Assembly (NCBI GenBank): GCA_965237685.1
Contig: CBDEGF010000003.1
Location: 1,276,069 to 1,340,068 of the forward strand
Length of the DNA stretch: 64,000 nucleotides
Direction of reading: 5' to 3'
Origin: Candidatus Marinacidobacterales bacterium
GTDB lineage: Bacteria > Acidobacteriota > Vicinamibacteria > Marinacidobacterales > SMYC01
Part shown: positions 26,409 through 46,221 of the stretch, piece by piece
How positions within the stretch are numbered: position 1 is the first letter of the stretch
Layout: each line of letters starts with the position of its first letter
Notes under the pieces: model-generated
Told to the model about the DNA's origin: nothing
The model's database searches: none
Seen by the model: the letters and a program-made list of their open reading frames with translations, nothing else
Program-made: the position numbers and the translations under genes

Positions 26409-26868
26409 GGCACTCCTTCGCAGGCATGATATCCACCGTCGGGAAGTGGAGCAACGGATCCACGCCAATCTGTAATAATTCCTCCTCGAGGAGCGTAGTC
26501 AAGAGTGAATGCCACGGTTGGCACGACGCCGAGCGAGCGAAAAGCTAGCTCTAGCAAGAGCTGATTGATGCCGACCGAGGAGGAGCTCCGGCAGCTGGTC
26601 GAGAGCGCTCGTGCCGGTGACGCCCAGGCGTGGGGCCGCATCTACGAGGAAGGAATCCTTCTTATGGTCGTCCTGATTGCTTTGAGCGCGATTCACTGGA
26701 GCGCTCGTCGATGGCGCTCGTCGCTGACGTTTTCGCTTGCACTGGTCGGCGCGTTCGGTGCCCTGAACACTTCCGCCGAAGGCTGCGGTTATCGAGCTCA
26801 ACGGGGGCCGATACCGCCTCGTCGCGGGCGAGACTCTCGACAACGACCTCATCGTCGCCGGCGAGCGC

Positions 26869-27843
26869 GTGGTCATCGAAGGCGTCGTAACCGGGGACCT
26901 CATCGTGGCTGCGGGCGTCGTCGAGGTCAGCGGGCAGGTGCAGGGCGACGTTCTCTTCGCCGGGGGGCGGATCGAGATCACCGGCCGCGTCGACGGGAGC
27001 GTCCGTGGCTTCGGAGGCACCGTCGAGATCAAGGGAACCGTCGGTCGGAACGTTACGTTCTGCGGCAATGAGCTGCGACTGGAGCGCGATGGCCGGGTTC
27101 TGGGAAGCGTCATCGTTGCCGGCGAGACCTTCTTTCAGGAAGCCTCTGTGGAACGCGACATCCTCGTCGGCGCAACCAGACATGAGCTCCGGGGACGCAT
27201 CGGGGGCAACGCCCTCGTTGCCGGCGAGGAGCTGTCCATCGGACGAGACGCCGAGATCCTCGGGACGGTGACCTTCTACGGAAAGACTGAGCCCGAGGTG
27301 TCACCCGAAGCTCGCCTCTCGTCCGAAGTGACGTTCGAGAGCGTCGAGGAGCTCGACGACGACGACGGGAGCGGCGTGATCTCCTTCATGCTCAAGTGGG
27401 CGGCGGCGTTCCTGTTCGGCGCGGTGCTGGTGATTCTCGCACCTCGTTTTCGAGCGGCGGTCGCGGAGAACATATCCCCCTACGGTTGGGCCATGCTCGT
27501 CGGAGCGCTGGCTCTTCTGGCCATTCCGGTGACCGCGATCGTGGTGCTCTTGACCGTCGTCGGTATTCCGATTGCCATGGCGCTCCTGTTCATCTACGTC
27601 GTCAGCGTCTACGCCTCGCACATTTACGTCGGACACTGGATCGGCTCGGAGACACTCGGTCAGGCCGCGACTCTGACGCAACAGATGGGCCGACTGGCGC
27701 TGGGCCTGGCGCTCATCTACTTCAGCTCCCTCATCCCATACGCGGGGGTGCTCATCGAGGCCATCATCCTGATTTGGGGACTAGGAGCGATCGTCCGGAC
27801 GGTGTACGACGGCGTCCGGCGTGGGAGCTTGCAGACCGCGTAG
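26869..27843 (+). CDS. bactofilin-like (polymer-forming cytoskeletal, beta-helix) domain protein with a C-terminal polytopic membrane region. N-terminus uncertain.
   Basis: Repeating VxG beta-helix units (VVTGDLIVAAGVVEVSGQVQGDVLFAGGRIEITGRVDGSVRGFGGTVEIKGTVG...). The repeats already begin upstream of the first in-frame start (RYRLVAGETLDNDLIVAGE), so a frameshift or non-canonical start is likely. Confidence 0.5.
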   Translation: MVIEGVVTGDLIVAAGVVEVSGQVQGDVLFAGGRIEITGRVDGSVRGFGGTVEIKGTVGRNVTFCGNELRLERDGRVLGSVIVAGETFFQEASVERDILVGATRHELRGRIGGNALVAGEELSIGRDAEILGTVTFYGKTEPEVSPEARLSSEVTFESVEELDDDDGSGVISFMLKWAAAFLFGAVLVILAPRFRAAVAENISPYGWAMLVGALALLAIPVTAIVVLLTVVGIPIAMALLFIYVVSVYASHIYVGHWIGSETLGQAATLTQQMGRLALGLALIYFSSLIPYAGVLIEAIILIWGLGAIVRTVYDGVRRGSLQTA

Positions 27844-27885: not shown

Positions 27886-28347
27886 ATGTTCAAGTCCGTT
27901 CAAGAGTACTTCAGCGTTCGAATTTCGGTTGACGAGACACCACCGACGCTCGAGCAGATCCAGCTCGCCACCGCGGCACTTCTCATCGAGGTCTCGAGCA
28001 GCGACAACGAAGTCGCACCGGAAGAACGGGAAGCCATCCTCGACGCCTTGCAGTCGAGCTTCGGACTCGACGAATCGTCGACGCGTGAGCTGGTGGGGCT
28101 CGCCGAGAAGGCAGTACGGGAAACGATCTCCCTCTACGAGTTCACGCGCCTAGTCGACCGGAGCTTCTCACCGGAGCAGAAGAAGCACATCATCGGCCTG
28201 GCGTGGCAGGTGGCTTTTGCGGACGAACGGCTGGACGAGAACGAGGAGTACTTGATCCGAAAGCTCGCCACGTTGCTTCATGTGACCCACCCCGACTTCA
28301 TCGACGAGAAGCTGAAGGCGAAAGCCCAAACAAAAGAAAAAAGATAA
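27886..28347 (+). CDS. TerB-family (tellurite-resistance-like) protein
   Basis: ORF track. Amphipathic helical protein with ATAALLIEVSSSDNEVAPEEREAI and IIGLAWQVAFADERLDENEEYLIRKLA, matching the TerB pattern. Confidence 0.6.
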   Translation: MFKSVQEYFSVRISVDETPPTLEQIQLATAALLIEVSSSDNEVAPEEREAILDALQSSFGLDESSTRELVGLAEKAVRETISLYEFTRLVDRSFSPEQKKHIIGLAWQVAFADERLDENEEYLIRKLATLLHVTHPDFIDEKLKAKAQTKEKR

Positions 28348-29513: not shown

Positions 29514-29537
29514 GGGGGGTGCCTCTGGGCACCCCCC
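29514..29537 (-). terminator. perfect 10-bp GC hairpin (GGGGGGTGCC-tctg-GGCACCCCCC) followed on the minus strand by ACCTTTATGTTT. It lies 26 nt upstream of the leuB start, so it is a candidate attenuator or leader terminator.
   Basis: Read directly from the sequence. Confidence 0.4.
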
Positions 29538-30181
29538 TTGTGCTCCAATAAGAGAAGCCAAGAGTTTATGTGGAGTTAAGGACGGGGAAAGTAAAACAGC
29601 AGGATAAATTAGCGGGTTCGGTCGATGGATGGTTAAGACCCGGCGTATTTACAATTACGGGTCTAATGTGGACCCCTGGCGGGACACCCCTACTGGAAGC
29701 ACAAACATGAAACATAGGATATAAGTTATTGTATTGGGTAGCCGTATAGTAATCGCCCTCCTATTTGATGTCAAGGTCGAAATCACGGCGAGGTCGCACA
29801 AAACTCGACGACCGTTCGTAACTTATTTACAAAAGGAGTGTTAATTAACGTGTTCGCTTTCGAACACGTTACTACTGCGTGTCGGTGAGCAAAGTTCGGT
29901 TTTCACAACGATGGGGCTTCGTAAACACCGGTTTCCCGAAACTACTTGATTTCAATGGGTGTTTTCCCTTACTATTGTCCCAGAGTCGAGATAGACAACT
30001 AGCTCAAACATCACCAGCGAGATTCTGACAACACGCACACCGCGTTCTTGACGCGCTTTTTCTAGCGCTCACGAAGGCTGGGCGCCCGGGGTCCAGGTGC
30101 GAGTCCACACTTCAGACCGACACAGCCGGCGTGTCACGCCCGCACCAGACCGACGTCCAGGAGCAGGATAAGGAGAAGAAG
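29538..30181. promoter_or_regulatory. 640-bp AT-rich (~47% GC vs ~65% background) non-coding leader or divergent promoter region between leuB and the NfeD-flotillin operon. It contains several palindromes.
   Basis: No ORF of 60 or more codons. Palindromes: AGACCCG-N16-CGGGTCT (29637-29666), a 24-bp perfect palindrome (29847-29870), and GTTTCccGAAAC (~29932). Confidence 0.5.
29847..29870. promoter_or_regulatory. 24-bp perfect palindrome AACGTGTTCGcttTCGAACACGTT. It is a candidate operator or hairpin.
   Basis: Read directly from the sequence. An AAGGAG lies 11 nt upstream and the GTG inside the palindrome opens a 12-codon ORF (VFAFEHVTTACR). Confidence 0.4.
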
Positions 30182-30973
30182 GTGCAGGAGTTTTTGGCGG
30201 CCATCATGGCCTTCCCGACAGCGGTTTTCACCGTGCTGTTGGGATTTGTCTTGCTGTACTGGTTTTCCGTGATCCTCGGTGTGCTCGATCTCGATTTCCT
30301 GGACAGCCTGTTGGGCCTCGACGCGGCGGAGGGCGCCCTGGATGGCGCCGTCGAAACTCTGGAGGGTGCCGCGGAGGGCGCCCTCGAAGGTGTCGGCGAG
30401 GCCCTGGACGGCGTGGACGGGGCCCTGGAAGGCGGGGCGGAGGCTGGCGAAGCCGGCGCCGCCGATACGGTCGAAGGCGCCAGAGGCCTGCTGCACGCCC
30501 TGGGTGTTCAAGGTGTTCCCATCACCTTTCTAGGGAGTTTCATCATTTTCTGGGCCTGGGTGATCAGTTTCTTCGTGATGCAGCTTATCGGCGGTCCTGC
30601 CGCGTCGGGCGCGATGGGCGCGGTCATCGGCATCGGGGTCGCCTTCTTCGGGGTCGCCGCGGGCGTCGTCCTCGGTGCGTTGTGCGTGCGACCGTTGAGC
30701 GGGCTGTGCAAAGTGCACCAGGCTCCCGGGCGTGCTTCGCTCGTAGGAAAAATGTGCACCGTAACGTCTCTACGCGTGGACGCCAGTTCCGGCCAGGCGG
30801 AGATCGACAACGGGGGCGCCGGGGTCGTGGCAGAGGTGCGCTGTCTTCAGACCAACGATCTTGTGAAGGGCTCCCAGGCCCTCGTGTTCAAATACGACGC
30901 TTCCAAGGAGGTCTTTCATATCGGCCCGGTCGATCGGGCGATCACCGAAGTGGAGCGGCTTACGACCGACTGA
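30182..30973 (+). CDS. NfeD/YqiJ-like membrane protein (three TM helices plus a C-terminal OB-fold) with a Gly/Ala/Glu-rich repeat loop
   Basis: ORF track 30131..30973 (GTG). GTG 30182 is preferred because AAGGAG sits 5 nt upstream. TM helices, then ASLVGKMCTVTSLRVDASSGQAEIDNGGAGVVAEVRCLQTNDLVKGSQALVFKYD (NfeD-type OB beta-barrel). The stop is 19 nt before the flotillin start. Confidence 0.7.
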   Translation: MQEFLAAIMAFPTAVFTVLLGFVLLYWFSVILGVLDLDFLDSLLGLDAAEGALDGAVETLEGAAEGALEGVGEALDGVDGALEGGAEAGEAGAADTVEGARGLLHALGVQGVPITFLGSFIIFWAWVISFFVMQLIGGPAASGAMGAVIGIGVAFFGVAAGVVLGALCVRPLSGLCKVHQAPGRASLVGKMCTVTSLRVDASSGQAEIDNGGAGVVAEVRCLQTNDLVKGSQALVFKYDASKEVFHIGPVDRAITEVERLTTD

Positions 30974-30992
30974 GCAGTTGCAGGGGGAAAAT

Positions 30993-33008
30993 ATGAACGA
31001 CATCATGGTTTGGTTCGCCATCGGCGCCGCGGCGATCATGGGCTTCGGCATGCTCATGATGGTCGCCAAGTTCTACCGTAAGGTGGAGCAAGGCAAGGCG
31101 CTCATCGTCAACAAAATGCGGAAAGAGCCCGCTGTCACTTTCACCGGCGATTACGTCCTGCCGGTGATTCACAAGGCCGAAGTCATGGACATCTCGGTGA
31201 AAACCATCGAGATCGACCGGCGAGGCAAGGAAGGCCTCATATGCGGCGACAACATCCGTGCCGACATCAAGGTTACGTTCTTCGTCCGAGTGAACAACCT
31301 CAAGGAAGATGTCATCAAGGTCGCGCAGGCGATCGGCTGCGCACGGGCCTCTTCCCCGGAGACTCTCGAAGCACTCTTCAGCGCCAAGTTCTCCGAAGCC
31401 CTCAAGACGGTCGGCAAGCAACTCGACTTTGTCGACCTCTATACCAAGCGTGACGAATTCCGCGACGCTATCATCCAAATCATTGGACGCGACCTGAACG
31501 GCTACAAGCTCGAGGACGCCGCCATTGATTACCTCGAACAAACGCCTATGGAGCATCTCGAGGCAACCAACATTCTCGACGCCCAGGGCATCCGGAAGAT
31601 CACCCACCTCACCTCTCTCGAGCACGTTCGCACCAACGAGTTCGAGAACAACGAGAAGAAGTCTATCCGTAAGCAGGATGTCGAGGCGGCAGAAGCCATT
31701 CTCGAGCTCGACCGGCAGCACGCCGATGCCGAGTCGAAGCAGAAGCGCGAGATCGAGTCGGTGCGCGCCCGCGAAACGTCCGCCCTCAATCAGGTACAGG
31801 CGGAGGAGCGCCTCAAAGCGGAGACCGCTCGCATCAAAACGGATGAAGAGCTGGCCATCGCCGAAGAGAACAAGATGCGACAGGTCGAGGTCGCTCAGAA
31901 GAACCGCGAGCGGGTCATCGCGGTCGAAACCGAACGTGTCGAGAAAGATCGACAGCTCGAAGCCGTCTCCCGCGAGCGGGAGGTCGAGCTCCTGAGGATC
32001 GACAAAGAGAAGGCCCTGGAGGTCGAGCGCAAAGCCATTCAGGACGTCATCCGCGAGCGCGTGGCCGTCGAGAGGACGGTCGTGGAAGAACAAGAGCGCA
32101 TCAAAGAGCTGGTGGTCGTCGAAGAGGCGAAGCGCTTGAAGCAGGCCACGATCATCGCCGCCGAGGCGGAGGCCGAAGAAAGGCTGGTCAAGGACATCAA
32201 AGCGGCCGACGCCGAAGAGCAGGCGGCGAAGTTCCGCGCCCGCGAGCGCGTTACCCTCGCCGAGGCCGAGCTCGAAGCCTCCGACCGCGAAGCGAAGGCC
32301 AAGATGCGCATCTCCGAAGGTGTGCAGGCCGAGTCCGCGGCAGAGGGCCTGGCCCAGGCCCGGGTCAAGGAGGCCGATGCCGTGGCCACCGAGAAGTACG
32401 GCCTCGCCGAGGTTCGCCTCAAGGAAGCCGATGCGGCTGCCATCGAGCGCGTCGGCGCGGCGGAAGCCTCGGTCATCAGCGACAAGTTCAAGGCCGAGGC
32501 CGCCGGAATCGCGGAGAAGGCAGAGGCCATGAAGCAGCTGGACGCATCGAGCCGCGAGCACGAGGAGTTCCGGCTCAGGATCGAGAACGAGCGTGTCATC
32601 AGCATGGGCGCCATCAAAGCCCGCGAGGCCATCGCCGAATCGAAGGCGGAGATTCTCGCCGAAGCTCTCAAGAACGCCGACATCGACATCGTGGGGGGCG
32701 ACGGAGCGTTCCTCGACCGCATGGTAAATTCCATCGGCATGGGCAAGGCGGTGGACGAGTTCGTCGGGAAGAGCGACACGGTCTCACGACTCCTGAGCAG
32801 CTACCTCAACGGTGACAAGGACTTCATGAGCGACGTCAAGAAGGCGGTCTCGGCCGCTGGCATCACCGGCGACGGGCTGAAGGACATCACCATCGGTGCT
32901 CTCCTCGGGAACCTGATGTCGAAGACGAGCGGTGACGACCTGGCGAAGCTGAAGAAGCTCGAGCGCCAGGCGCGCGCCCTCGGAATGGAAGACGTGGAGT
33001 TGTCGTGA
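30993..33008 (+). CDS. flotillin-family protein (SPFH/band-7 domain plus a long EA-rich coiled coil)
   Basis: ORF track 30978 (TTG). ATG 30993. N-terminal TM (MNDIMVWFAIGAAAIMGFGMLMMV). SPFH core (KALIVNK...ISVKTIEIDRRGKEGLICGDNIRADIKVTFFVRV). ~350 aa of E/A/R/K heptad-like repeats. Confidence 0.85.
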   Translation: MNDIMVWFAIGAAAIMGFGMLMMVAKFYRKVEQGKALIVNKMRKEPAVTFTGDYVLPVIHKAEVMDISVKTIEIDRRGKEGLICGDNIRADIKVTFFVRVNNLKEDVIKVAQAIGCARASSPETLEALFSAKFSEALKTVGKQLDFVDLYTKRDEFRDAIIQIIGRDLNGYKLEDAAIDYLEQTPMEHLEATNILDAQGIRKITHLTSLEHVRTNEFENNEKKSIRKQDVEAAEAILELDRQHADAESKQKREIESVRARETSALNQVQAEERLKAETARIKTDEELAIAEENKMRQVEVAQKNRERVIAVETERVEKDRQLEAVSREREVELLRIDKEKALEVERKAIQDVIRERVAVERTVVEEQERIKELVVVEEAKRLKQATIIAAEAEAEERLVKDIKAADAEEQAAKFRARERVTLAEAELEASDREAKAKMRISEGVQAESAAEGLAQARVKEADAVATEKYGLAEVRLKEADAAAIERVGAAEASVISDKFKAEAAGIAEKAEAMKQLDASSREHEEFRLRIENERVISMGAIKAREAIAESKAEILAEALKNADIDIVGGDGAFLDRMVNSIGMGKAVDEFVGKSDTVSRLLSSYLNGDKDFMSDVKKAVSAAGITGDGLKDITIGALLGNLMSKTSGDDLAKLKKLERQARALGMEDVELS

Positions 33009-33018
33009 AGGTGCTCTC

Positions 33019-36000
33019 ATGACTACCGAGAGCGAGGCAGGCACTGTCAGCATCGAGCGCGGCACCTACGAGATCATCCGCGACCGGCTCCTCGGTCAAG
33101 GGAAAGAGCTCTCCACCAGGGCCGAGGCGCTCAACAAGAAGCGCCTCGAGCTCTTCGGTGGAACCGAGCTCGCGGTCATCGGCAACGAGCGGATCCGTAC
33201 CGCCAACAACTGCGTTCCCAGGGACATCAAGGAAGTCGGTCCCTTTCTCCTCTTCGGCTACAACGTCTTCATCGGCCTCAAGACCGAGACGGCGGTCGAG
33301 GACGTTTTCAGCCTTCATCGCTTCGAGGAGACCGACGGGGGCTTCACGTTCAATGCGGTGGCTCCGGACTCCCCCGATTACTTCCTGTCCGATCCCAGGT
33401 TACTGAAGGATTTCCGGGAGCTCTACGAGTATTACAAGAATTCTCGTCTGATCCAGCTCCGCCGCCTCGAAGGCAAGATCCTGGCCGTCTTCCAGATCGG
33501 CGAGAAGATATCGGACATCAGAGCGTTCCGCTGGGCGGTGGATGTCGATGGCAAAATCACCTACATCGACAACCGCGGCGAGCGGGATCACACCTTTCCT
33601 CCGCAGCATGACTTCGAGTGGACCCCTACCTCTCGAGAAGACCACGTCGCCGGTCGCCACCCACACGTCTCGATCCTGGACGAGGTCTTCGTCGAGACAG
33701 TGGGTGGCGACCTTACGGTGAAGGTGGAGGACAACACGGAATCCGGAACGGGGGTTTACGCCGAGCCGGTGGACGAGCCCGATCAGTCGCTCGACGACGC
33801 CGAGATCCATTACGCAAAAGTGGGGACGCTCATTCTGCTCAAGGTCCGCCCCTACAACGAGACCACCTGGCGTTATCTCGTCTTCAACACGCGGACGCAT
33901 AAAGTGAACCGCATCGACGCGATCGGACAGGCCTGTCTCGAGCTTCCCGAGGATCACGGCCTCATCTTCCCCGGCGGATACTACCTTCAGAGCGGCACCA
34001 CCAAGACGTTCGATCGCAACATCACAGGGATGGAGTTCCTTCGAACGATCCGCTCACCGAACGGCGAGGACGTCTTGTACGTCTTTCATCAGCGCAAGGA
34101 AGGCCGCACCATCCTGCTGCCTTACAACATGATCCGGAAGGAAGTACCGAATCCCCTCTACTGCCACGGCTTCAGTCTCTTTCCCGATGGCAAGGCAGTC
34201 ATCTTCCGCGCCGACTCGGATGAGCCGACCCGCGTCCACCGGATGCAGATCTGGCGCACACCGTTCATGAGCGACGAGCACATGACGGTCGCTCCCGTCA
34301 GCGACTCCTACCTCCAGAAAGTGGGGAACGCCGATCTCGTCCGGGGGGTGTCCGACTGCCTGAGCCTGGTCCGCATGGTGAACGAGCAGACGCCGACCCG
34401 ACAGAAGTACGAGGACCTGGTCGCCGCTGCCGAGCGGGTCATCGACGGCTACTACTGGCTCGACCATCAGGAAGTCGGAGAGCCCGCCGGCGTGGTGCGA
34501 GAGATTCACGAGACCGCAGAAGCGATCATCGACGAGTTCGAAAAAGTGGAAGCGCTTCGCCAGCTGGCGCGCGAAGCGATCGCGGAGACCGAGGCGAACA
34601 TCCAGGAGATCTTCCGTGGCATCTACCCGGACTCGTGGACCACCATCGACCGCTACGTCGAGTATCTGAGCAAGCTTCGCTCCGCACGAGGTCACGCCAT
34701 CACGCTCCGCGAGAAGCGCTACGTGGACCTGACGCGCCTCGACGAGCTCGAGCAGGAAGTCATCGAGCGCTTCGACGCGTTGAGCGCCCGCGCGGTCGAG
34801 TTTTTGACCGGGGAAGCTGCCCTCGCTCCCTACCACGAGCAGATCGCCACGCTCGAATCAGGCGTCGACGCACTCTCGAAAGTCACCGAAGCGAACGAGC
34901 ATCAGGAGAAGCTCCAGGCGGTCAGTGATGGCCTCGACTTGCTGACCGAGGTGGTGACCTCGCTCGACATCGAGGATGCGACGGTGCGAACCCAGATCCT
35001 GGAGAACATTTCCGAGATCATGGGAGGCCTGAACCGCGTGCGCGCCCTGATCGCCATCCGGCGCAAGGAGCTTCTTGGAAAAGAGAGCATCGCCGAGTTC
35101 GGCGTTCAGTTCCAGCTTTTGAGTCAGAGCGTGACCAGCGCCTTGAGTCTGTCCGACACACCGGAGGCCTGCGACGAGCAGCTCCCCAAGATGATGCTCC
35201 AGCTCGAGGAGCTCGAGACCCGCTTCTCGGAGTTCGACGAGTTCGTCACCGAGCTCACCACCAAGCGCGAGGAGATCTACGAAGCTTTCACGTCGAAGAA
35301 ACAGTCCCTCGTCGATCGGCGGCAGCGACGCGCGCAGCGGCTTCTCCAAGCGGCCGAACGCATTCTCCAGGGCGTGATCCGGCGCGCCGAGACGTTCGAG
35401 ACCGACGACGATCTCAACGCCTTCTTTGCCGCCGACGCGATGGTGGCAAAGCTTCGCGCCACCGCCGACAAGCTCCGGAAGCTCGGGGATTCGGTAAACG
35501 CCGACGAGGTCGAAACTCGCCTGAAAACCGCCCGGGAAGAAGCAGCACGAGGACTTCGGGATCGCCGCGACATCTACGAGGAGGGCGCGAGCGTCATCAA
35601 GCTCGGCAAGCATCGCTTCAGCGTCAACACGCAGCCTCTCGAGCTCACGATGGTGCCGCGGGACGGCGGCATGGCCTTCCACCTCACCGGAACTGGCTTC
35701 TACGAGACTGTGTACGACGAAACCTTTTCCGCAACGAAGGACTTCTGGAACCAGGAGCTCGTTTCCGAGACGAAAGAAGTCTACCGGGGCGAGTATCTCG
35801 CCGCCTCGATTCTCGAGGATGCCGAGCTCGGCCGCGCCGCTCTGTCGATCGCGAAGCTTCAGGAGGCGGCCCTCGCCGACGGCCAGCTCCTGTCGCTCGT
35901 ACGCGACTATGCCTCGGAGCGCTACGACGAGGGCTACGAGCGAGGCCTCCACGATGCCGATGCGACCCTCATCCTCTCGAAGCTCCTGCCGATGCACCAG

Positions 36001-38397
36001 ACGGCCGATCTGCTTCGCTTCACGCCGGAGACCCGGGCTGCCGCCACGCTGTTCTGGGCTCTGTACGAGGACCGAACGCAGCGAAGCTACTGGGAGAACC
36101 AGGCGAAGAGTCTGGTGAGGCTGCGATCCCAGTTCGCGGGGAGCGGCGCGGCGCGCGGCCTGGGAGAAGAGCTCACCGGGGCCATGAAGGTCTTTTTCGA
36201 GAACATGGGCGTCGAGATACCGGATGACGCGCTGCGTCTGGCCGGCGCCTATCTCCTCGAGGAGATCGCCAAGGAGCCCCAGCGCTTCGTTCTGAGCGCC
36301 GAAGCCAAAGCGCTCCAGAACGAGTTCGAGCAGCATTTGCGCGCCTCCGGCACCGATCGCGATTTCGAGCAGGACATGCGCTCGTTACGGGACGACCCGG
36401 TGCGACGGTACCGGCTGGCGATCTCCTGGCTCGAGGGCTACTTGAAGCATATCGGCGCTCTCGAGCCGCTTCGGCACGTGCTCGCCGAGACGGTCGCGGC
36501 CACCCTGACCGAGGGTGTCATCAGCCGCGAAACCTCGAGTGCTCTTCACGCGGTCGAGCTCGACGGGTTGCTGGGCCAGCACCCGCGCATCGCGAGCGGC
36601 AAGATGACGCTCCAGCTCGACGAGTTCCTCTCGCGTCTGGGAACGTTCCGGCACGAGCGCGTGCCGGGCTTCCGTCGCTTCCAGGCGGCGAGGCACGCTG
36701 TGCTCGAGAGCGAGCGGAAGAAGCTCCGTCTCGATGAGTACAAAGCCAAAGTGATGTCCGCCTTCGTGAGAAACCACCTCATCAACGAGGTCTATCTTCC
36801 GGTCATCGGGGACAACCTGGCGAAGCAGATGGGCGCCCTCGGCGCCGGCAAGCGCACCGACCTCATGGGCATGCTGCTTCTCATCTCTCCGCCCGGCTAT
36901 GGCAAGACGACGCTCATGGAGTACATCGCCAACCGCCTCGGCCTGGTGTTCATGAAGATCAACGGGCCTTCCCTGGGGCATTCCGTGACGTCGCTCGATC
37001 CCGGCGAAGCCCCCAACGCCACCGCGCGACAGGAAGTGAACAAGCTCAACCTCGCCTTCGAGATGGGCAACAACGTGCTCCTGTATATTGATGATATCCA
37101 GCATACCCATCCGGAGTTCCTGCAGAAGTTCATCTCCTTGTGCGACGCCCAGCGGAAAGTGGAGGGTGTCTGGAAGGGTGAGACGCGCACCTACGACTTG
37201 CGCGGCAAGAAGTTCGTGGTGTGTATGGCGGGCAATCCCTACACCGAGTCCGGCGAAAAGTTCCAGATCCCCGACATGCTGGCCAATCGTGCCGACACCT
37301 ACAACCTCGGTGACATCCTCGAAGGCAAGGACGAGCTCTTCGCACTCAGTTACATCGAGAACAGTCTCACCTCGAACTCTTATCTGGCAACTTTGACCAG
37401 CCGGGAGCCAGGTGACATCGATAAGCTGGTGCGCATGGCACGCGGCGAGCCCGTACAGGCCGATCAGCTCTCCCACTCCTACTCGGCGGTGGAGCTGAAC
37501 GATCTGCTCGAAGTCCTGAAGAAGCTTCTGCACGTGCAGGGGCTCTTGCTGCGCGTGAACCAGCAGTACATCCTTTCGGCGTCGCAGCAGGACGTCTACC
37601 GTACCGAGCCACCCTTCAGGCTCCAGGGAAGCTACCGCAACATGAACAAGCTGGCGGAAAAAGTCGTTCCCGCGATGAACGCAAAGGAGCTGGAGGCTCT
37701 CATCGACGACCACTACACGGGCGAGGCCCAGACGCTTACGACCGGGGCGGAGGAGAACCTCCTCAACCTGGCGGAGATGCGCGATCGCCTCTCACCCGAA
37801 CAAGCGGCCCGCTGGGACGAGATCAAGAAGGCCTTCGTCCGCGTCCAGCGCATGGGAGGTGGCGATGACGACCCTGTCACCCGACTGACCGGACAGTTGA
37901 GCCTCGTCTCGGAGCGACTCGAGGACATTGGTGAGAGCATCGACAAAGCAGCGAACGATCGACCGGCCGTGGCAGTGGCTTCCGGTGGAGCACTCGCGGC
38001 TGCGCCAGCCGCACCCGCGAACGTCGATGTAAAGATCGACTTCGAGCCGTATCTGAACAAGCTGAACGAGTTGCTCGAGGCGCTCAAGAACGGCCAGGAG
38101 AAGGCGCCGGTCGTGGCAGGGTCCATCACCGACGAGCCGCCGCCGGACTACGAGCTCATCTCGCGTGAGGCCTACCTCATCCAGAACACGCTGATTCCCC
38201 TCCTTCAGTTCATGGCGCACCGCTTCAGGGGCTACCGGGACGTCGAGGATCCCAAGGTGAAGGCCCTCATCTCGTCCCTGGAGAAGGTGGACGACCTGAA
38301 CGAGCTGGTGAGCGCGCTCGAGAAGATCAACGTCTCCGCACTCGCTGACATGACCGAGGACGAACTCGAAGAGGCGGAGCAGCAGGATCCACCGTAG
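33019..38397 (+). CDS. giant (1792 aa) multidomain protein: N-terminal beta-rich domain, ~800-aa helical/coiled-coil region, AAA_5 (dynein/MoxR-type) ATPase module near residues 1280-1480, and a helical C-terminus
   Basis: Uninterrupted 5379-nt ORF. ATG is 10 nt after the flotillin stop. Walker A LLISPPGYGKTTLMEY. Walker B NNVLLYIDDIQHTHPEFLQKF. Sensor-1 KKFVVCMAGNPYTE, plus FQIPDMLANRADTYNL (the R finger / LxxRF-like motif of AAA_5). No VWA/MIDAS partner domain seen. Confidence 0.8.
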   Translation: MTTESEAGTVSIERGTYEIIRDRLLGQGKELSTRAEALNKKRLELFGGTELAVIGNERIRTANNCVPRDIKEVGPFLLFGYNVFIGLKTETAVEDVFSLHRFEETDGGFTFNAVAPDSPDYFLSDPRLLKDFRELYEYYKNSRLIQLRRLEGKILAVFQIGEKISDIRAFRWAVDVDGKITYIDNRGERDHTFPPQHDFEWTPTSREDHVAGRHPHVSILDEVFVETVGGDLTVKVEDNTESGTGVYAEPVDEPDQSLDDAEIHYAKVGTLILLKVRPYNETTWRYLVFNTRTHKVNRIDAIGQACLELPEDHGLIFPGGYYLQSGTTKTFDRNITGMEFLRTIRSPNGEDVLYVFHQRKEGRTILLPYNMIRKEVPNPLYCHGFSLFPDGKAVIFRADSDEPTRVHRMQIWRTPFMSDEHMTVAPVSDSYLQKVGNADLVRGVSDCLSLVRMVNEQTPTRQKYEDLVAAAERVIDGYYWLDHQEVGEPAGVVREIHETAEAIIDEFEKVEALRQLAREAIAETEANIQEIFRGIYPDSWTTIDRYVEYLSKLRSARGHAITLREKRYVDLTRLDELEQEVIERFDALSARAVEFLTGEAALAPYHEQIATLESGVDALSKVTEANEHQEKLQAVSDGLDLLTEVVTSLDIEDATVRTQILENISEIMGGLNRVRALIAIRRKELLGKESIAEFGVQFQLLSQSVTSALSLSDTPEACDEQLPKMMLQLEELETRFSEFDEFVTELTTKREEIYEAFTSKKQSLVDRRQRRAQRLLQAAERILQGVIRRAETFETDDDLNAFFAADAMVAKLRATADKLRKLGDSVNADEVETRLKTAREEAARGLRDRRDIYEEGASVIKLGKHRFSVNTQPLELTMVPRDGGMAFHLTGTGFYETVYDETFSATKDFWNQELVSETKEVYRGEYLAASILEDAELGRAALSIAKLQEAALADGQLLSLVRDYASERYDEGYERGLHDADATLILSKLLPMHQTADLLRFTPETRAAATLFWALYEDRTQRSYWENQAKSLVRLRSQFAGSGAARGLGEELTGAMKVFFENMGVEIPDDALRLAGAYLLEEIAKEPQRFVLSAEAKALQNEFEQHLRASGTDRDFEQDMRSLRDDPVRRYRLAISWLEGYLKHIGALEPLRHVLAETVAATLTEGVISRETSSALHAVELDGLLGQHPRIASGKMTLQLDEFLSRLGTFRHERVPGFRRFQAARHAVLESERKKLRLDEYKAKVMSAFVRNHLINEVYLPVIGDNLAKQMGALGAGKRTDLMGMLLLISPPGYGKTTLMEYIANRLGLVFMKINGPSLGHSVTSLDPGEAPNATARQEVNKLNLAFEMGNNVLLYIDDIQHTHPEFLQKFISLCDAQRKVEGVWKGETRTYDLRGKKFVVCMAGNPYTESGEKFQIPDMLANRADTYNLGDILEGKDELFALSYIENSLTSNSYLATLTSREPGDIDKLVRMARGEPVQADQLSHSYSAVELNDLLEVLKKLLHVQGLLLRVNQQYILSASQQDVYRTEPPFRLQGSYRNMNKLAEKVVPAMNAKELEALIDDHYTGEAQTLTTGAEENLLNLAEMRDRLSPEQAARWDEIKKAFVRVQRMGGGDDDPVTRLTGQLSLVSERLEDIGESIDKAANDRPAVAVASGGALAAAPAAPANVDVKIDFEPYLNKLNELLEALKNGQEKAPVVAGSITDEPPPDYELISREAYLIQNTLIPLLQFMAHRFRGYRDVEDPKVKALISSLEKVDDLNELVSALEKINVSALADMTEDELEEAEQQDPP

Positions 38398-38470
38398 ACG
38401 CATCGGTTAGAGTTACAATCAACACAGCGGTACCCCTTGCAGCGAGCGCATTCGAGCTAAGGAGGCAAGC

Positions 38471-39229
38471 ATGGGCCTTTGGGCACGCATCAAATCCGTC
38501 TGGTACGCCCTGCTCAACCAATCGGTCACCGACATGGAAGACAAGCACGTCATCGCCCTGGCCGAGAGCAAGCTCCGGCAAGCTACCGAGCGGCTCAAAG
38601 ATGCCCGGCAAGGGCTCATCAACTACCAGACGCTGGTCTTGAAAGTGCAGCAGCAGGTCGTGCGCGAGAAGGCTCGTATCCAGAGCCTTACCGCACAAAT
38701 AAAAACGCACCTCAAAGCAGGCCAGGAGGACCTGGCGGCTCAGCTCGCCATGGAGCTCGCCCAGGTTAACAACGAGCTCGCAAGCAACGAGGAGCAGCTC
38801 ACACAACACCAGAGTGCCTACGAGAATAACCTCCTGAAGATGAAGGCCGCCCTCAAGGAGATCCAGTCTACGAAGAAGGAGCTGGAGAAGATGAAGGCGG
38901 CGCTGCAGATGGAGAGCGCTCTGGCCGAGGTGTCGGAGACGGCGGGCACCCTCAACACGAGCTTCGACGTGTCCTCCGACCTCGGAGATATCATGGGTCG
39001 CGTGGACGACCAGATCAACAAAGCCCGGGCGCGGTCCAAAGTCGCAGACGATTTGGGAGATCAGGACCTCGAGCGGCTGAAAGCCCAGCAGGAGGCCGAA
39101 AAAGCGCAGGCGCAGGACCTTCTCGAGCAGTTCAAGATCGAGCAGGGGCTGGTCGAGCCCTCCTCGACTCCTACCGAAAAGACCGTTGGCCGAGAGCGGG
39201 AAGCCGCGACCGAAGGAGACGGTAACTAG
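38471..39229 (+). CDS. pspA: PspA/IM30/Vipp1 family protein (bacterial ESCRT-III superfamily)
   Basis: GGAGG RBS 6 nt upstream. MGLWARIKSVWYALLNQSVTDMEDKHVIALAESKLRQATERLKDARQGLINYQTLVLKVQQQVVREKARIQSLTAQIK... is the hallmark PspA N-terminal amphipathic helix plus coiled-coil hairpin. Confidence 0.85.
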   Translation: MGLWARIKSVWYALLNQSVTDMEDKHVIALAESKLRQATERLKDARQGLINYQTLVLKVQQQVVREKARIQSLTAQIKTHLKAGQEDLAAQLAMELAQVNNELASNEEQLTQHQSAYENNLLKMKAALKEIQSTKKELEKMKAALQMESALAEVSETAGTLNTSFDVSSDLGDIMGRVDDQINKARARSKVADDLGDQDLERLKAQQEAEKAQAQDLLEQFKIEQGLVEPSSTPTEKTVGREREAATEGDGN

Positions 39230-39277
39230 ACGACTTCCGGAAAATAAACGCAAAGGCGCCAAGGCGCAAAGAACGGA

Positions 39278-41044
39278 ATGGCTACATCGCCCTCAGTCCT
39301 CACCCGCGACTCACCCACCTGGGCGCAAGAGCTGGCCCACCGCTACGTCAGCGGCGCCGCCAGCGTGTTCCTCGCCCACGGCAACGTCCACGATCTCGTA
39401 CCGGCGGGCGACGACCGGGCGTTCCTTTCGCTCGAGGACTACTTCGCGACCGAGCTCTTTGGAAGTCGCGACATCGTCATTCTCTACGACCGCGGCAGCG
39501 GTATTCGCTTCCTCGCTCCCGGAAACAACGACCGCCGGCAGGCAATGCGCCAGGACTTCCAGCGAACGCTCGAAACCATCGACATGGTCAACGAGACCAG
39601 CTTCGCCAAATCCCGCCCCAAGGATCCGACGCTCGTCTTCGAGCTCCTGGACCGGTACATCCTCCACAAGCTCCTGGAGACGCCGCGTGACGGAAACCGG
39701 AAGAGCCTGGCGATTCTCATCCGCTACCTCGAGACCATCACTCCGGCGGTGGACGGCTCATGGCTCACCGGTGCGCTGGGAGAGAACCTTCTCAAGGTCT
39801 TGAACTGGGCGAACGAGCCCACGATTCGAAGTGGCGACGTCACGTTTTGCCTCGTCACGGAAAATTTAGCCGACATCAGCCGGCGGCTCGTGGAGAATCC
39901 GTTCATCTCGAAAGTCGAGATCCCGCTCCCCGACCAGCCGACGCGCCGACGCTACGCCGAGCTCCTCTTGTCGTCGCGCCAGGAGACATCGAAGCTCAGC
40001 GCCGCGTCACTAGCGACAGAAGCCAACGGGCTCACCCTGGTCGGTCTCTCTCAGGCGATCGGCCAGGCTCGAAGCGAGTCGGACAGCTTCGGGCTCGAGT
40101 CTCTCAGGCGCGCAAAGAAAGAGCTCATCGAGAAGCAGTGTTTCGGCCTGGTCAAGTTCATGGCTCCTCGCCACGATCTCTCCGCAGTGGTTGCGCCGAA
40201 GGGCGTCAAGAAGCGACTCGAGCAGGACGTCATGCTCTTCAAGAAGGGCCGCTTCGACGCCCTTCCCATGGGCTATCTCCTGTGTGGTGTGATCGGCACC
40301 GGCAAGACCTTCACCACCACTTGTCTAGCAGGCAGTCTCGGCATCCCAGCCGTTGTCTTCAAGAACCTCCGGAGCAAGTGGGTGGGAAGCTCCGAAGGCA
40401 ACATGCAGAAGGTTCTCTCGGTCATCAAAGCGCTCGGCCCGGTGGTCGTGATCATCGACGAGGCCGACGCGGCGCTGGGCACACGCGCGGCCTCGGGAGA
40501 TAGTGGTACGTCGAGTCGGATGTTCGCGATGATCTCGTCCCTGATGAGTGACACCCAATACCGCGGCCGCATTCTGTGGATGCTTCTGACATGCCGGCCC
40601 GATCTCCTGCCCGTCGACTTGAAGCGGCAAGGTCGCTGCGAGGTGCACATTCCCCTGTTCTCGCCCGAGACCGAAGCGGAGCGCAAGGAGATGTTTCTCG
40701 CCATGGCGAGCAAGAACGGCGTCGACGTCGGCTCGGGCGACGTGCCTTCCCTGCCCGAAGGACTCTCCGGAGCGGACATCGAGAGTCTTCTCGTGCAGTG
40801 TGTTCGTCGAGCCGCCATCGAGGGCGCACCGAATCCGACCGCCGAGCACATGCGCCGAGCGGTAGAAGGTTTCATCAGCCCGGACTACGGTCTCGAGAAA
40901 GAGCTCCAGCGGCTGGTCGCCGTGCAGGAGTGTACGGACCGGGACTTCCTGCCCAGGAAGTGGCGCAAGGAGCTCTCGTCGGCCGAAGGGGCCTCCGCCA
41001 TCACCAAGCGCATCAGCGAGCTTCAGGCCCTTCTCGGCTCGTGA
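39278..41044 (+). CDS. tandem-AAA ATPase: a degenerate N-terminal AAA-like domain (D1) plus a canonical classic-AAA C-terminal domain (D2). Cdc48/Vps4-like disassemblase architecture.
   Basis: D1: FLAHGNVHD sits in place of Walker A, but TFCLVTENLADISRRLVENPFISKVEIPLPDQPTRRRYAELLL retains the AAA lid/SRH pattern. D2: Walker A LLCGVIGTGKTFTT. Walker B VVVIIDEADAAL. SRH LLTCRPDLLPVDLKRQGRCEVHIPL. No GAFTGA and no C-terminal HTH, so it is not a PspF-type sigma54 activator. Confidence 0.8.
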   Translation: MATSPSVLTRDSPTWAQELAHRYVSGAASVFLAHGNVHDLVPAGDDRAFLSLEDYFATELFGSRDIVILYDRGSGIRFLAPGNNDRRQAMRQDFQRTLETIDMVNETSFAKSRPKDPTLVFELLDRYILHKLLETPRDGNRKSLAILIRYLETITPAVDGSWLTGALGENLLKVLNWANEPTIRSGDVTFCLVTENLADISRRLVENPFISKVEIPLPDQPTRRRYAELLLSSRQETSKLSAASLATEANGLTLVGLSQAIGQARSESDSFGLESLRRAKKELIEKQCFGLVKFMAPRHDLSAVVAPKGVKKRLEQDVMLFKKGRFDALPMGYLLCGVIGTGKTFTTTCLAGSLGIPAVVFKNLRSKWVGSSEGNMQKVLSVIKALGPVVVIIDEADAALGTRAASGDSGTSSRMFAMISSLMSDTQYRGRILWMLLTCRPDLLPVDLKRQGRCEVHIPLFSPETEAERKEMFLAMASKNGVDVGSGDVPSLPEGLSGADIESLLVQCVRRAAIEGAPNPTAEHMRRAVEGFISPDYGLEKELQRLVAVQECTDRDFLPRKWRKELSSAEGASAITKRISELQALLGS

Positions 41045-41259
41045 CGCTCGCAGTCGATTCCCATGCGGGCTACCGCGGGGAAGAGACACCACGCCGCTTC
41101 TGCATCGAGGGTCGCTGGGTGGCAGTCGACGAGATTCTCGGGCGTTGGCGTACTCCGGAGCATTGCTACTTCAAAGTTCGCTCGGAAGATGGCGCCACGT
41201 GCACCCTTCGGCAAGACGTCGCGTCGGGCACCTGGGAGCTTCATGCGATTTCCTCGTGA
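41041..41259 (+). CDS. small (72 aa) hypothetical protein, translationally coupled to the tandem-AAA gene
   Basis: GTG overlaps the TGA of the upstream gene (GTGA). TLAVDSHAGYRGEETPRRFCIEGRWVAVDEILGRWRTPEHCYFKVRSEDGATCTLRQDVASGTWELHAISS. Looks like a small beta-rich domain (W/Y/F-rich). Ends 39 nt before the convergent DUF790 gene. Confidence 0.4.
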   Translation: MTLAVDSHAGYRGEETPRRFCIEGRWVAVDEILGRWRTPEHCYFKVRSEDGATCTLRQDVASGTWELHAISS

Positions 41260-41300
41260 CACGCCCAGTAACCTTCCCTACACTGAGTTGGAGGATACGC

Positions 41301-41597
41301 TCACAGAGTATTGCCGGGCGCTTCCATGATCTCCAGCAACCTCGCCGCATCGATGCGCCTGCGGAACTGCAGGACGGGCGTGTTGGGTGGCAGGTCTGAT
41401 TCGGAACACTGTCGCTCCTCGTCGATGCAGAGAATGAGATTAGGGATACGCGCAGCGCGCAGGAACGCGAGCTTTTTGAAGATGTAGTCGGGAGTCCAGA
41501 ATCCTACTATCTCGACGAACCAGGCGCGGGCAGGATCGATACGATGGCGCAAAAAAAAGTCGGGGAAGATGAGCTTGCCCCCCGCCGCAATTGCGTC
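41301..41597 (-). pseudogene. DUF790/Bax1-like nuclease, C-terminal part (3' portion of the gene split by IS copy B)
   Basis: Reading across the IS in frame: ...DWDVIREPDA | IS | IAAGGKLIFPDFFLRHRIDPARAWFVEIVGFWTPDYIFKKLAFLRAARIPNLILCIDEERQC... (restriction-endonuclease-like core E..D..K-type region). Confidence 0.6.
41590..41597. repeat. target-site duplication (ATTGCGTC), left of IS copy B
   Basis: Identical octamer at 44731-44738. Confidence 0.85.
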
Positions 41598-41678
41598 GTG
41601 TCCTTGCGACAGCAGTGCGTGACTTAGGTGCTGTTGGGTTCGTAAGTTGAGCGGAGAGATTGCTCAAGGAGGCCATCG

Positions 41679-42221
41679 ATGCGCTCAAAGAAGGCAGAAC
41701 TCGAAGACGTTGTGAAACAGTTCGAAGCATGGCGGGCGAAGCCACACGGACGGCTGATCCCGGAGGAGTTGTGGAAAGCGGCGCTGGGGTTGCTCGATCG
41801 GTATGCGCCGAGCACGATCTGCAGTCATCTCCGAGTCAATGCGGCGCGATTCAAACAGGTCCGAGAGAGTGGAGGGGCTGTTGTGGGCGAGAAGCGTTTC
41901 AAGGGGCACGGGCGAACGGGTGCTACGGGTCGGTCCCCGCGCACAGTACAGGATCGGAGCGCGGCGGAGCGGGTCACGGCGTTAGCTCCAAGTGGCAACG
42001 CGTTCGTCGAGCTGCCGCAGTTCGGCATGGGCTTAGGGGGCGGCATGATGACACCGCCGCTCGGCGAGGTTCAGCATGGAGCGAGCAGATGCCGTCTGAC
42101 GGTGGAGAGCGCAGCGGGGAGCCTCACGGTCGTGACGGCGAGCGGCGAGGGTGAGAATGAGTTGGTCGAAGCCGTGTGTCGTTTCGTGCTCGGCGCGCTG
42201 GAAGGCAGCTCCCGAGCATGA
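41679..42221 (+). CDS. tnpA: IS66-family TnpA (copy B)
   Basis: Identical to copy A TnpA apart from rare substitutions. Confidence 0.7.
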   Translation: MRSKKAELEDVVKQFEAWRAKPHGRLIPEELWKAALGLLDRYAPSTICSHLRVNAARFKQVRESGGAVVGEKRFKGHGRTGATGRSPRTVQDRSAAERVTALAPSGNAFVELPQFGMGLGGGMMTPPLGEVQHGASRCRLTVESAAGSLTVVTASGEGENELVEAVCRFVLGALEGSSRA

Positions 42222-42571
42222 TCCAGCTCGTTCCCCAGCTGAAGGTGCTGGTTGCCTGCGAGCCCGTCGATTTCCGCAAGGGCATCGATTCTTTGGCTTG
42301 TGTGTGCCGGCAACAGTTCCAGCTCGACTCATTCCTCAGAACGCTATTCGTTTTCCGCAACCGTTCAGGCACGGCCCTCAAACTATTGGTCTACGACGGC
42401 CAGGGCTTTTGGTTGTGCCAGAAGCGTTTCTCGAAGGGGCGCCTGCAGTGGTGGCCGCGTCAGACGACGGATGGCGTTGCGGCGCTACCCGCCGAGCAGT
42501 TGGCGGTGCTTATCTACAACGGACTTCCGCTGCGAGCGGGGATGGCCGAGCCGTGGCGGCGGGTCGGTTGA
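42218..42571 (+). CDS. tnpB: IS66-family TnpB (copy B)
   Basis: MIQLVPQLKVLVACEPVDFRKGIDSLA... Two substitutions versus copy A (DSFLRTLF vs DPFLGTLF). Confidence 0.8.
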   Translation: MIQLVPQLKVLVACEPVDFRKGIDSLACVCRQQFQLDSFLRTLFVFRNRSGTALKLLVYDGQGFWLCQKRFSKGRLQWWPRQTTDGVAALPAEQLAVLIYNGLPLRAGMAEPWRRVG

Positions 42572-43934
42572 GCCTTTCCAACGTCTTCTGGTAGCTCCAA
42601 GGCAGCCACGACTCGGGTGCTGCTCTAGCGTCTCGAGCGTGCATGGAGATGTTCGTCAGATAGTGCACCGGGTCGACACCGTTTTTTACCGCGGTGCGGA
42701 TCATGCTCAGGAGCACGTCGCCCACGTCGGCGCCTGCCTGGGTCTTGAAGAAGAGCGAGTTCTTGCGATGCCGTTGTGAGGGCTTCAGCTCCTGCTCGAC
42801 CTCGTTGTTGTCGAGGGGCACGCCCGGCACTTCGCGGAAGCGGGTTAGCCCTTGCCAGTGATTTTTGACGTAGGAAAAGGCTTTTCCAAGGCGGCTGTTG
42901 GGCTCCACCACGCGCTCGCGGAACTGCTTTTCGATCCACTCGTAGAGCGCATCCATCACCGGCCGGCTGTGTTGCTGGTGATATGCAAGCCGCGCATCGG
43001 GGGTCATGTCGCGCGTTTCGTCGTCGTTGCGGTAGATGGTCGCGATGTCCTCGAGCACCCGCTCGCAGTGTTCGGGGAAGGCTGGCTCGGCCTCGAAGAA
43101 GTAGCGGCGTGCGTGCACCATGCACTTGGCGGTAATCCGTCGCGGCGAGCGCGGTGCCATCGAGGAGGCGTCGGCCATATGGATGACATCGCTCTCCTGA
43201 ACGGTGCGCTGATTCAGGAGCCGGTCCATGTTTTCGCCCGCATGCCGTCGTCCGCTCGCGTACAGGATGATCGGAGCAAGCGTGGCGTCCAAGCCGCGGG
43301 CAACAATGCCCGTGGTGAAGATGCCCGTGCGCTCGCCTTTGCCTTGAGTCAAGGTCTCGTTCTCCGCCATCAACGTGAGGATCCGTGCGCCGGTGTCGTC
43401 ACTGTGAACCAGCGGCCGGTTCGCGGCTATCGTCTCCATGTGGCGGAAGACCGGGAACACGGCATTCGCCATCGCTTCGACCCGCTCGAACTGCGTGGAG
43501 GCGGCAAACGGAACCCCCGCCCACTTTTGCCACTGCGCCAGGCGGTGGTGGGGCATGCCCATGGCGTAGCGCAACACCGAAACGACCGCGTCCACACTCG
43601 GATGGTACTTGCTCGCCCAGGCCTGAGACGAAAGTGGCGCTGTGAACGTCTTCTGGCAACTTGCGCATCGCAGCATCTGGCGCTCGTACACCGTCGCCTG
43701 GATCGGCGGCTGAGCCTTCAGCTCCACATCCTTGTTCGCCGCATGGGTGTCGTAGAGCTTGCCCCGGCACAGTGGCTCGGGGCAGGGGCCGCTCGCCTTC
43801 AGCTCGGGATGCGAACCCCCGCCCACTTTTGCCACTGCGCCAGGCGGTGGTGGGGCATGCCCATGGCGTAGCGCAACACCGAAACGACCGCGTCCACACT
43901 CGGATGGTTGCCAACGACAGCACGTGACTCGCAA
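42510..43934 (-). pseudogene. tnpC: IS66-family TnpC, copy B. The N-terminal ~85 aa are replaced by a duplicated internal segment.
   Basis: Matches copy A from ...HPELKASGPCPEPLCRGKLYD onward. The N-terminus MRVTCCRWQPSECGRGRFGVALRHGHAPPPP is junk derived from the duplication. Confidence 0.75.
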
Positions 43935-44580: not shown

Positions 44581-44730
44581 TGTTTTCCTCCCAGCCTGAG
44601 GTTACACAGTCAGCCAGCGTTTGTCCAGTCCTTTTTTCCCTCTCTCTCTGCCCGCGAGAAAAACAACACACCCGGCGTTCAGCTTACCGAATCGCCCCCA
44701 CGTTCTCACGCACTACTACCGCAAGGACAC

Positions 44731-46212: not shown

Positions 46213-46221
46213 GTCGAAGGG

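Follow-up and report, generated by a model that had tools for sequence, protein, structure and literature searches.

Within a 64,000-nt stretch of DNA from a Candidatus Marinacidobacterales bacterium (contig CBDEGF010000003.1; hereafter the window), ORF calling finds six co-directional plus-strand open reading frames (ORFs) between positions 30182 and 41259. The first five form a real and intact gene cluster, which is a new combination of two modules that had already been predicted. The first three genes, encoding a YqiJ/NfeD2-like membrane protein, a flotillin, and a giant DUF3686 protein, make up a triad, and the following two, encoding PspA and an ATPase with an inactive and a classical AAA domain, make up a dyad. 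The reading that we prefer, at a probability of roughly 60%, is that these are two autonomous membrane modules that were set in tandem by one insertion and that act together in membrane maintenance or repair. An initial annotation of the sequence had proposed one machine encoded by the locus; the comparisons reported here instead reveal a lineage-specific juxtaposition of two autonomous modules. What is new is that the triad and the dyad are directly joined, an arrangement that recurs independently in three phyla and for which we found no description.

The separate conservation of the two modules is apparent from their neighborhoods in other genomes. The triad was followed in 80 genome loci with the giant, 66 of which had enough DNA upstream and 63 downstream, and the dyad in 80 metagenome loci with homologs of the ATPase (39–76% identity), 19 of which had at least 6 kb of upstream DNA. 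In 64 of 66 loci, from about ten phyla, the gene directly upstream of the giant encodes a flotillin and has the same orientation, and 52 of the 66 have a recognizable YqiJ-like gene. Nothing recurs downstream of the giant: in a Pfam scan of 137 ORFs from there, no family had more than 4 members, and a phmmer search of the ORFs in all 80 triad loci, with PspA as query, added no divergent PspA to those of four acidobacterial loci. For the dyad, a same-strand PspA gene is found upstream of the ATPase in 17 of the 19 informative loci, either adjacent or ~4–5 kb away, and in loci L085 to L087 an ABC-transporter block accompanies the two genes. The two modules are each separately conserved and autonomous, and they do not constitute one ancestral machine.

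How they came to stand together can be read from the closest relatives, which are acidobacterial metagenome-assembled genomes, some of them labeled Ca. Marinacidobacterales. Locus L089, whose ATPase is 66% identical to that of the window, has no triad and reads sigma70–DUF8173–TerB–Iso_dh(-)–PspA–AAA–CxxCxxCC–DUF502–...–Amidohydro–ELFV. Locus L081 (72% identical) has the same flanks, with YqiJ–flotillin–giant lying between Iso_dh and PspA. The window has these flanks too, with the PeptS15, DUF8173, TerB, and Iso_dh genes upstream and the DUF502, Amidohydro, and ELFV genes downstream, and the triad is found upstream of PspA in the window and in five related acidobacterial loci. Given that the same flanks occur with and without the triad, the five-gene cluster came about when the triad was inserted directly ahead of a PspA operon that was already there, and, judged from this synteny, the insertion is one event in one acidobacterial clade. 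Separately, the ECF sigma factor and PilZ genes of L081 and the first ~184 codons of its DUF8173 gene have no match in the window, a difference at 26409–27810 that is consistent with a local deletion.

The modules also meet outside of this clade. In L078, from Verrucomicrobia, the order on one strand is PspA-like→ATPase→TerB→YqiJ→flotillin→giant, and in L042, from Planctomycetota, the genes for a 296-aa coiled-coil protein and an ATPase are divergent from the triad; the ATPases of both loci are 27–29% identical to the window protein and have kept the D1 signature described below. These two juxtapositions support a functional link between the modules, and the existence of several independent associations of the triad with a PspA-type module is the main argument for such a link over chance. 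Co-localization in other genomes, raised as a check by the initial annotation, is therefore found both in the five related acidobacterial loci and, independently, in two other phyla. A TerB-domain gene also lies close to the cluster in acidobacterial genomes (27886–28329 in the window), and the TerB gene of L078 (5753–6169) comes right after the PspA–ATPase pair and right before the flotillin triad; TerB may be a further recurrent partner of the cluster.

The assignments initially made for genes 2 to 5, as flotillin, AAA_5 giant, PspA, and ATPase with inactive D1 and active D2, are upheld by Pfam and by the family alignments. Residues 2–224 of the gene 4 product match positions 1–217 of the 220 in the PspA profile PF04012 (E 4e-14; 53.2 bits against a cut-off of 33.9). 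Most of 33 other AAA-linked PspAs carry a C-terminal tail motif, F[KE]xExG[LM]xxP-x(6-9)-K-x-[LVI]-G, which is looser in the three most divergent of them and extends to PspAs whose match to the PspA profile is no better than E 1e-18 to 1e-23. The motif is located beyond the core domain, at residues ~210–252 in the window protein (39100–39229), and was seen in the PspA ORFs of L093–L171. It is possible that this tail is a docking or initiation signal for the ATPase.

Gene 5 encodes two consecutive domains, D1 (residues ~25–290) and D2 (~330–530), of which Pfam finds a single classical AAA domain at residues 334–459. By sequence, only residues 329–528 align with AAA proteins of solved structure, the best being VAT, Afg2, and the D2 domain of Cdc48. 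Across 42–44 family members, D2 has an invariant Walker A (GTGKT), Walker B (DE, within DEAD), KWVG pore loop, and second region of homology (SRH) arginines, and D1 has an invariant HGNxHD at the place of the P-loop and no acidic Walker B. In the AlphaFold2 (AF2) model (mean pLDDT 85.9), the N-terminal half forms an alpha/beta core with a helical lid, and the alignment to tandem AAA proteins spans 310–363 residues. The N-terminal half is a degenerate AAA-like domain lacking Walker A and Walker B, and, with the motifs and pore loop of D2 invariant and the fold supported, the protein is predicted to be ATPase-competent. Searches of Pfam and NCBIfam found neither an MIT domain nor a Cdc48 N-domain in it.

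The giant encoded by gene 3 combines DUF3686 (PF12458, E 4.9e-217), DUF7902 (PF25472, E 4.2e-29), and one AAA+ module (AAA at residues 1286–1411, with a marginal match to AAA_5, PF07728, at 23.6 bits against a cut-off of 22). It begins with an N-terminal helix and a beta-propeller-like domain (~52–413), continues with helical bundles and coiled coil (~430–1200), and ends with a MoxR/AAA_5-like AAA+ module (~1250–1450) and a C-terminal region; no hydrophobic segment is present, as in a soluble protein. More than 7000 homologs exist, many of them labeled "DNA repair ATPase" or "MoxR-like ATPase", and the giant is found in Acidobacteriota, Myxococcota, Planctomycetota, Actinomycetota, Verrucomicrobiota, Bacteroidota, Spirochaetota, Calditrichia, and Lentisphaeria. 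It is colinear over its full length with an 1801-aa homolog (71% identity) and is therefore not an assembly chimera, a concern that had been raised initially. Its best-conserved part is the AAA module, in which GYGKTT and the segment MAGNPYTE.G..F.IPDML..RAD are invariant among 80 aligned sequences; the latter contains an NP...G...(I/L)P...(D/N)R motif after sensor 1, which we take to be of the MoxR type. The canonical Walker B, hhhhDE, is absent from the giant: its place is taken by Y-x-D-D-I-Q-H (residues 1355–1361, window ~37090–37110), where Asp replaces the catalytic Glu, and the second acid is Asp in at least 90% of the 80 aligned giants, which come from many phyla. An AF2 model of residues 1–700 (pLDDT 84.7) consists of a long helix, an all-beta part at 52–413, and helical bundles at 431–699, and the best Foldseek matches of this region (window 33019–35118) in the PDB are all beta-propellers, at E ~1e-5 and with TM-scores of only 0.1–0.3. 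Among the matches are the propeller-plus-helical terminal domain of the clathrin heavy chain, IFT-A subunits, and a nucleoporin, which we note as a weak lead, and the isolated WD40 propeller of HOPS Vps11 matches the N-terminal region as well, again with low TM-scores. No solved structure of a relative of the giant was found.

Genes 1 and 2 belong to a familiar type of pair. The gene 2 product matches Band_7 (PF01145, E 1.3e-8; 35.6 bits against a cut-off of 23.6) and is 29% identical to Escherichia coli YqiK over 462 residues (E 5e-38); its only hydrophobic segment, residues 3–28, forms an N-terminal membrane anchor that is followed by the Band_7 domain and a long charged helical region. Gene 1, which had been annotated as NfeD, has no Pfam or NCBIfam match of its own, and is assigned as a YqiJ/YuaF-type (NfeD2-like) protein on orthologue and profile evidence only: 11 of 55 positional orthologues match YqiJ_N (PF21001, best E 7.8e-7), and the profile of the orthologues matches E. 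coli YqiJ in hhalign with a probability of 92.9% (E 3.7e-7). Hydrophobic segments at about residues 1–46, 106–140, and 140–176 are followed by a conserved, beta-rich C-terminal block that aligns with the C-terminus of YqiJ, so that the protein has a multi-pass transmembrane N-terminal part and a soluble C-terminal beta domain, with an SPFH2 gene starting 19 nt downstream. From the profile evidence for gene 1 and the YqiK match of gene 2, the two therefore constitute an NfeD2–SPFH2 pair, as defined by Hinderhofer et al. 2009 (PMC2636767).

Taken together, the likeliest function of the cluster would be membrane maintenance by two pairs, each consisting of a scaffold and an AAA+ remodeler, and it is in this sense that we infer the physical interactions among the members and their physiological role. 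The flotillin/YqiJ assembly would form an oligomeric membrane scaffold on which the giant would dock via its propeller-like domain and helical arm, using ATP to assemble, open, or recycle the scaffold; the invariant partnership of the giant with flotillin and YqiJ, as well as its soluble layout of propeller-like domain, arm, and AAA+ module, suggests action on the SPFH assembly. A hexamer of the gene 5 ATPase would engage PspA, possibly through the conserved C-terminal tail, and thread it through the KWVG pore, thereby disassembling or remodeling PspA polymers, which would make it a functional analog of Vps4 acting on ESCRT-III and not a Vps4 homolog. In view of its close linkage to PspA and of its full set of hexameric substrate translocase features, this ATPase most likely serves to extract or unfold PspA subunits. 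The SPFH platform and PspA would then act at the same membrane sites. A bolder proposal is that all five genes make up one machine, in which a flotillin/YqiJ cage would mark damaged or specialized membrane and recruit PspA, while the giant recycles flotillin and the ATPase recycles PspA via a docking tail resembling the MIM of Vps4 partners. We hold this to be tentative and somewhat doubtful; were it true, it would give bacteria a genuine factor for the ATP-driven disassembly of ESCRT-III.

Several findings weigh against the view that the two modules act together. Only 4 of 63 loci have PspA and the ATPase following the giant, each of them one of the closest acidobacterial relatives (~70% identity), and two further triad loci carry the dyad upstream, so that 57 of the 63 are without the other module nearby; the triad was found in none of the 80 sampled metagenome dyad loci. 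As the modules are rarely adjacent, each normally works without the other beside it. The acidobacterial adjacency, being a single inherited event, counts only once, and with regard to the other two juxtapositions, the PspA-like gene of L078 matches PF04012 at E 1.5e-5 and 25.2 bits, below the cut-off of 33.9, and the coiled-coil protein of L042 matches the PspA profile at the tail region only (hhalign probability 61%). The Asp-Asp in place of Asp-Glu in its Walker B makes the mechanism of hydrolysis by the giant uncertain, and hhalign of D1 against D2 of gene 5 is not significant (E 0.3), with an EIPLPD..R motif as the only feature in register, which leaves an internal duplication of this gene unsupported. 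The neighborhood counts, together with the presence of the dyad at the same chromosomal site without the triad in L089, would fit a fortuitous adjacency, in which the triad landed by a PspA–AAA operon and the modules work independently while sharing a transcript or neighborhood. Chance, however, would have had to produce two more juxtapositions in another order or orientation, in Verrucomicrobia and Planctomycetota; the CesT/Tir-linked class of PspA is also found with the triad (PMC11237479), and the gap of 50–73 nt between the giant and PspA leaves little room for an upstream region of PspA's own. We consider a purely fortuitous adjacency unlikely.

The remaining explanations concern the kind of function that is served. 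The initial annotation offered a membrane-acting anti-phage or abortive-infection system as an alternative, and IS66 copies, a DruA-domain ORF, and helicase fragments do lie just downstream, while the ATPase has a generic AAA similarity to IetA/IteA (PADLOC 5.5e-13; NCBIfam 49 bits against a cut-off of 510). However, these mobile and defense-like genes are within a 7-kb insertion that is missing from the relatives, and the flanks are housekeeping genes in conserved synteny. PADLOC-DB 2.0 gives no system-level match, with IetA matching the AAA core only and LmuB/JetC only coiled coil, while viral contigs yielded no relatives and PHROG searches nothing informative. The giant, moreover, is 44–73% identical over ~1800 residues across phyla among the 80 loci, which is unlike fast-evolving defense genes. 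With no positive evidence from PADLOC, viral contigs, or PHROGs, we regard defense as very unlikely. A role of the giant as a DNA-repair ATPase, which would make the cluster not membrane-related at its core, is suggested by its NCBI and Pfam labels ("DNA repair ATPase", "ATPase involved in DNA repair") and by weak matches of the Walker A region to RuvB and RFC, but the RuvB, RFC, and clamp-loader matches span just ~45–80 residues around the P-loop (22 bits against a cut-off of 282), Pfam finds no nuclease, helicase, or DNA-binding domain, the constant partners of the giant are two membrane proteins, and a literature search for "DUF3686", or for "flotillin" with "DNA repair ATPase", returned no papers. 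The family name is probably misleading, and a repair function has next to nothing in its favor. Equally improbable is that the 588-aa ATPase is a PspF-like regulator inhibited by PspA and not a PspA remodeler: the pairing of PspA with an AAA+ protein is indeed regulatory in Proteobacteria, where the partner is PspF, but Pfam and NCBIfam find no Sigma54_activat, GAFTGA, or helix-turn-helix match in gene 5, in agreement with the initial annotation, and the protein belongs to the classical AAA clade, with the SRH and KWVG pore loop typical of substrate translocases.

The ORF coordinates (Table 1) bear out the co-directional arrangement as originally described, with gaps of 19, 10, 73, and 48 nt between genes 1 to 5 and a GTGA overlap between gene 5 and the small ORF that follows it. 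The GC content at third codon positions (GC3) is 0.78–0.83 in genes 1 to 5, typical of real genes, and weaker, at 0.69, in the small ORF. A terminator scan found two plus-strand hairpin-plus-T matches downstream of the start of gene 1, both within coding sequence, and no terminator-like hairpin in the intergenic gaps of the cluster, the total number of such matches being at chance level; matches in a sigma70 promoter scan were likewise at chance level, and an Rfam scan of the window from 28 to 49 kb gave no match. The distance of only 50–73 nt ahead of pspA argues for read-through transcription from the triad, and genes 1 to 5 are probably now co-transcribed, presumably from a promoter in the right-hand part of the upstream spacer.

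Table 1. Features of the gene cluster and of its immediate surroundings (positions in the window)
Feature	Position	Strand	Size	Basis or remark
Upstream spacer	29533-30181	.	649 nt	50% GC
Gene 1, YqiJ/YuaF-type (NfeD2-like) membrane protein	30182-30973	+	263 aa	ORF, orthologue and profile evidence
Gene 2, flotillin-like SPFH protein of YqiK type	30993-33008	+	671 aa	PF01145
Gene 3, soluble DUF3686 giant	33019-38397	+	1792 aa	PF12458, PF25472, AAA, AAA_5
Gene 4, PspA/IM30 (ESCRT-III superfamily)	38471-39229	+	252 aa	PF04012
Gene 5, degenerate AAA-like D1 and predicted active classical AAA D2	39278-41044	+	588 aa	
Small ORF, outside the system	41041-41259	+	72 aa	Missing from relatives' loci
TnpB_IS66	42176-42571	+		
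DDE_Tnp_IS66	42513-43934	-		
DruA-domain ORF	43402-44580	-		
DUF790 ORF	44709-45752	-		
XPB/ERCC3-like helicase fragments	45580-46212; 46111-46473	-; +		On opposite strands
Lnb-like membrane protein	47004-48137			

The small ORF, counted at first as the sixth gene of the operon, is missing from all 80 triad loci and from all related operons. Where a related locus does have a sixth gene, it is a CxxCxxCC gene, which overlaps the stop of the ATPase; a remnant of that gene was considered for the small ORF and rejected, as there is no similarity. Its only Pfam match, to DUF6504, is sub-threshold, and its family consists of 37 homologs with 48–61% identity together with a sister copy that is 97% identical. 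In L172, L173, and L174 (around 4001–4309), a member is oriented tail-to-tail with the genes for a PDDEXK_11 protein and a Dam-type methyltransferase, close to HTH_17, transposase, or excisionase-like genes. The family may be a mobile restriction-modification or regulatory accessory, and, from its distribution, the small ORF is classed as foreign mobile DNA outside the conserved cluster. The small ORF sits at the left edge of a non-syntenic stretch of 7.2 kb (41045–48202) that is absent from the syntenic relatives and that replaces the CxxCxxCC gene usually following the ATPase. The IS66-family copy in this insertion (41597–44730) and another at 16137–19664 are inverted and 99.6–99.9% identical, differing by a 96-bp internal repeat. 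Insertion sequences are thus indeed nearby, as the description of an IS-rich, variable neighborhood had it, but the flanks are syntenic chromosomal genes, and the IS-rich character belongs to the 7.2-kb insertion and not to the ancestral context of the cluster.

The spacer ahead of gene 1 also differs from its first description as a 640-bp AT-rich leader, in length and in base composition, and ~230 nt at its left end belong to an element of the neighboring Iso_dh gene. In six relatives, the sequence ahead of Iso_dh is 74–77% identical to the segment 29511–29741; one of the six is L089, which has no triad. Read on the minus strand, this element contains the invariant blocks CCATCCATCGACCGAACCCGC and CGTCCT..ACTCCACATA; of the pairs in a 7-bp stem, three have changes on both sides (compensatory). 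A strong GC-rich terminator-like hairpin stands right before the start of Iso_dh in three genomes, that of the window being at 29514–29537, and the element itself has no Rfam match. As it is kept without the triad and lies on the minus strand next to Iso_dh, it belongs to Iso_dh and not to the operon, and it could be an attenuator, riboswitch, leader, or small RNA of that gene.

These results have implications for how bacterial ESCRT-III-like polymers may be taken apart. A 2025 review (PMC7619361) states that a Vps4-like ATPase "appears absent in bacteria", and structural work on PspA invokes unknown chaperones for its disassembly (PMC11746142). The PspA-linked AAA+ protein with its dead D1 is a concrete and widespread candidate for taking apart bacterial PspA/Vipp1 polymers, and the repeated adjacency of the dyad to a flotillin module with the giant points to cooperation between SPFH scaffolds and ESCRT-III-like polymers. 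Both modules can be tested in cultured bacteria, as the triad occurs in Dokdonia, Enhygromyxa, Plesiocystis, and Paractinoplanes and the dyad in Clostridium sp. BNL1100.

With respect to known systems, the ESCRT-III/Vps4 logic proposed by the initial annotation survives as a functional analogy at most. Vps4 and CdvC have a single AAA domain and an MIT domain, whereas gene 5 encodes two AAA domains and no MIT, with the N-terminus leading straight into D1; the CdvC model NF041006 scores 37.4 bits against a cut-off of 650, and FtsH, Rix7, and VAT match gene 5 equally well or better. The Cdc48/p97/VAT model TIGR01243 likewise scores only 58.9 bits against a cut-off of 802, with D2 alone aligning by sequence. 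YqiJ–YqiK of E. coli and YuaF–FloT of Bacillus subtilis are the same pair as genes 1 and 2, although in E. coli no giant AAA+ gene follows yqiK at the yqiJK locus. Joint action of an SPFH protein with PspA has a functional precedent in B. subtilis YdjI, which, according to Scholz et al. 2021 as cited in PMC7619361, recruits PspA to the membrane, although YdjI is of a different SPFH subfamily from gene 2 and has no AAA+ partners.

The closest counterparts are those predicted by Ravi et al. 2024 (PMC11237479), who described an operon of YqiJ/YuaF, flotillin, and a "beta-propeller + coiled-coil + AAA-ATPase" protein, either alone or with CesT/Tir–PspA (an example is the neighborhood of ANH61663.1 in Dokdonia donghaensis), as well as a dyad of PspA with an inactive-AAA/classical-AAA protein (Clostridium AEY64320/AEY64321 and Ca. 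Handelsmanbacteria OGG56892), and who proposed ESCRT-like, ATP-dependent membrane remodeling. Both modules, and the general idea, are already published as predictions, and the original description of the locus as an undescribed system is overstated. The likeness of their dyad to genes 4 and 5 consists in the degenerate D1, the intact D2, and the adjacent PspA, and homologs of gene 5 with 45–56% identity belong to the PspA–PBPB/OmpA–ABC–(TM-Snf7)–AAA operon type in their Table S3; unlike that type, the window and the close acidobacterial dyads have no ABC transporter. In their triad operons, the linked PspA is of the YjfJ type and comes with a CesT/Tir chaperone, whereas the cluster in the window has no CesT/Tir gene and its PspA comes with its own two-domain AAA+ protein. 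The dyad of the acidobacterial relatives is followed by the CxxCxxCC and DUF502 genes, and in the lineage of the window it is the triad that precedes it.

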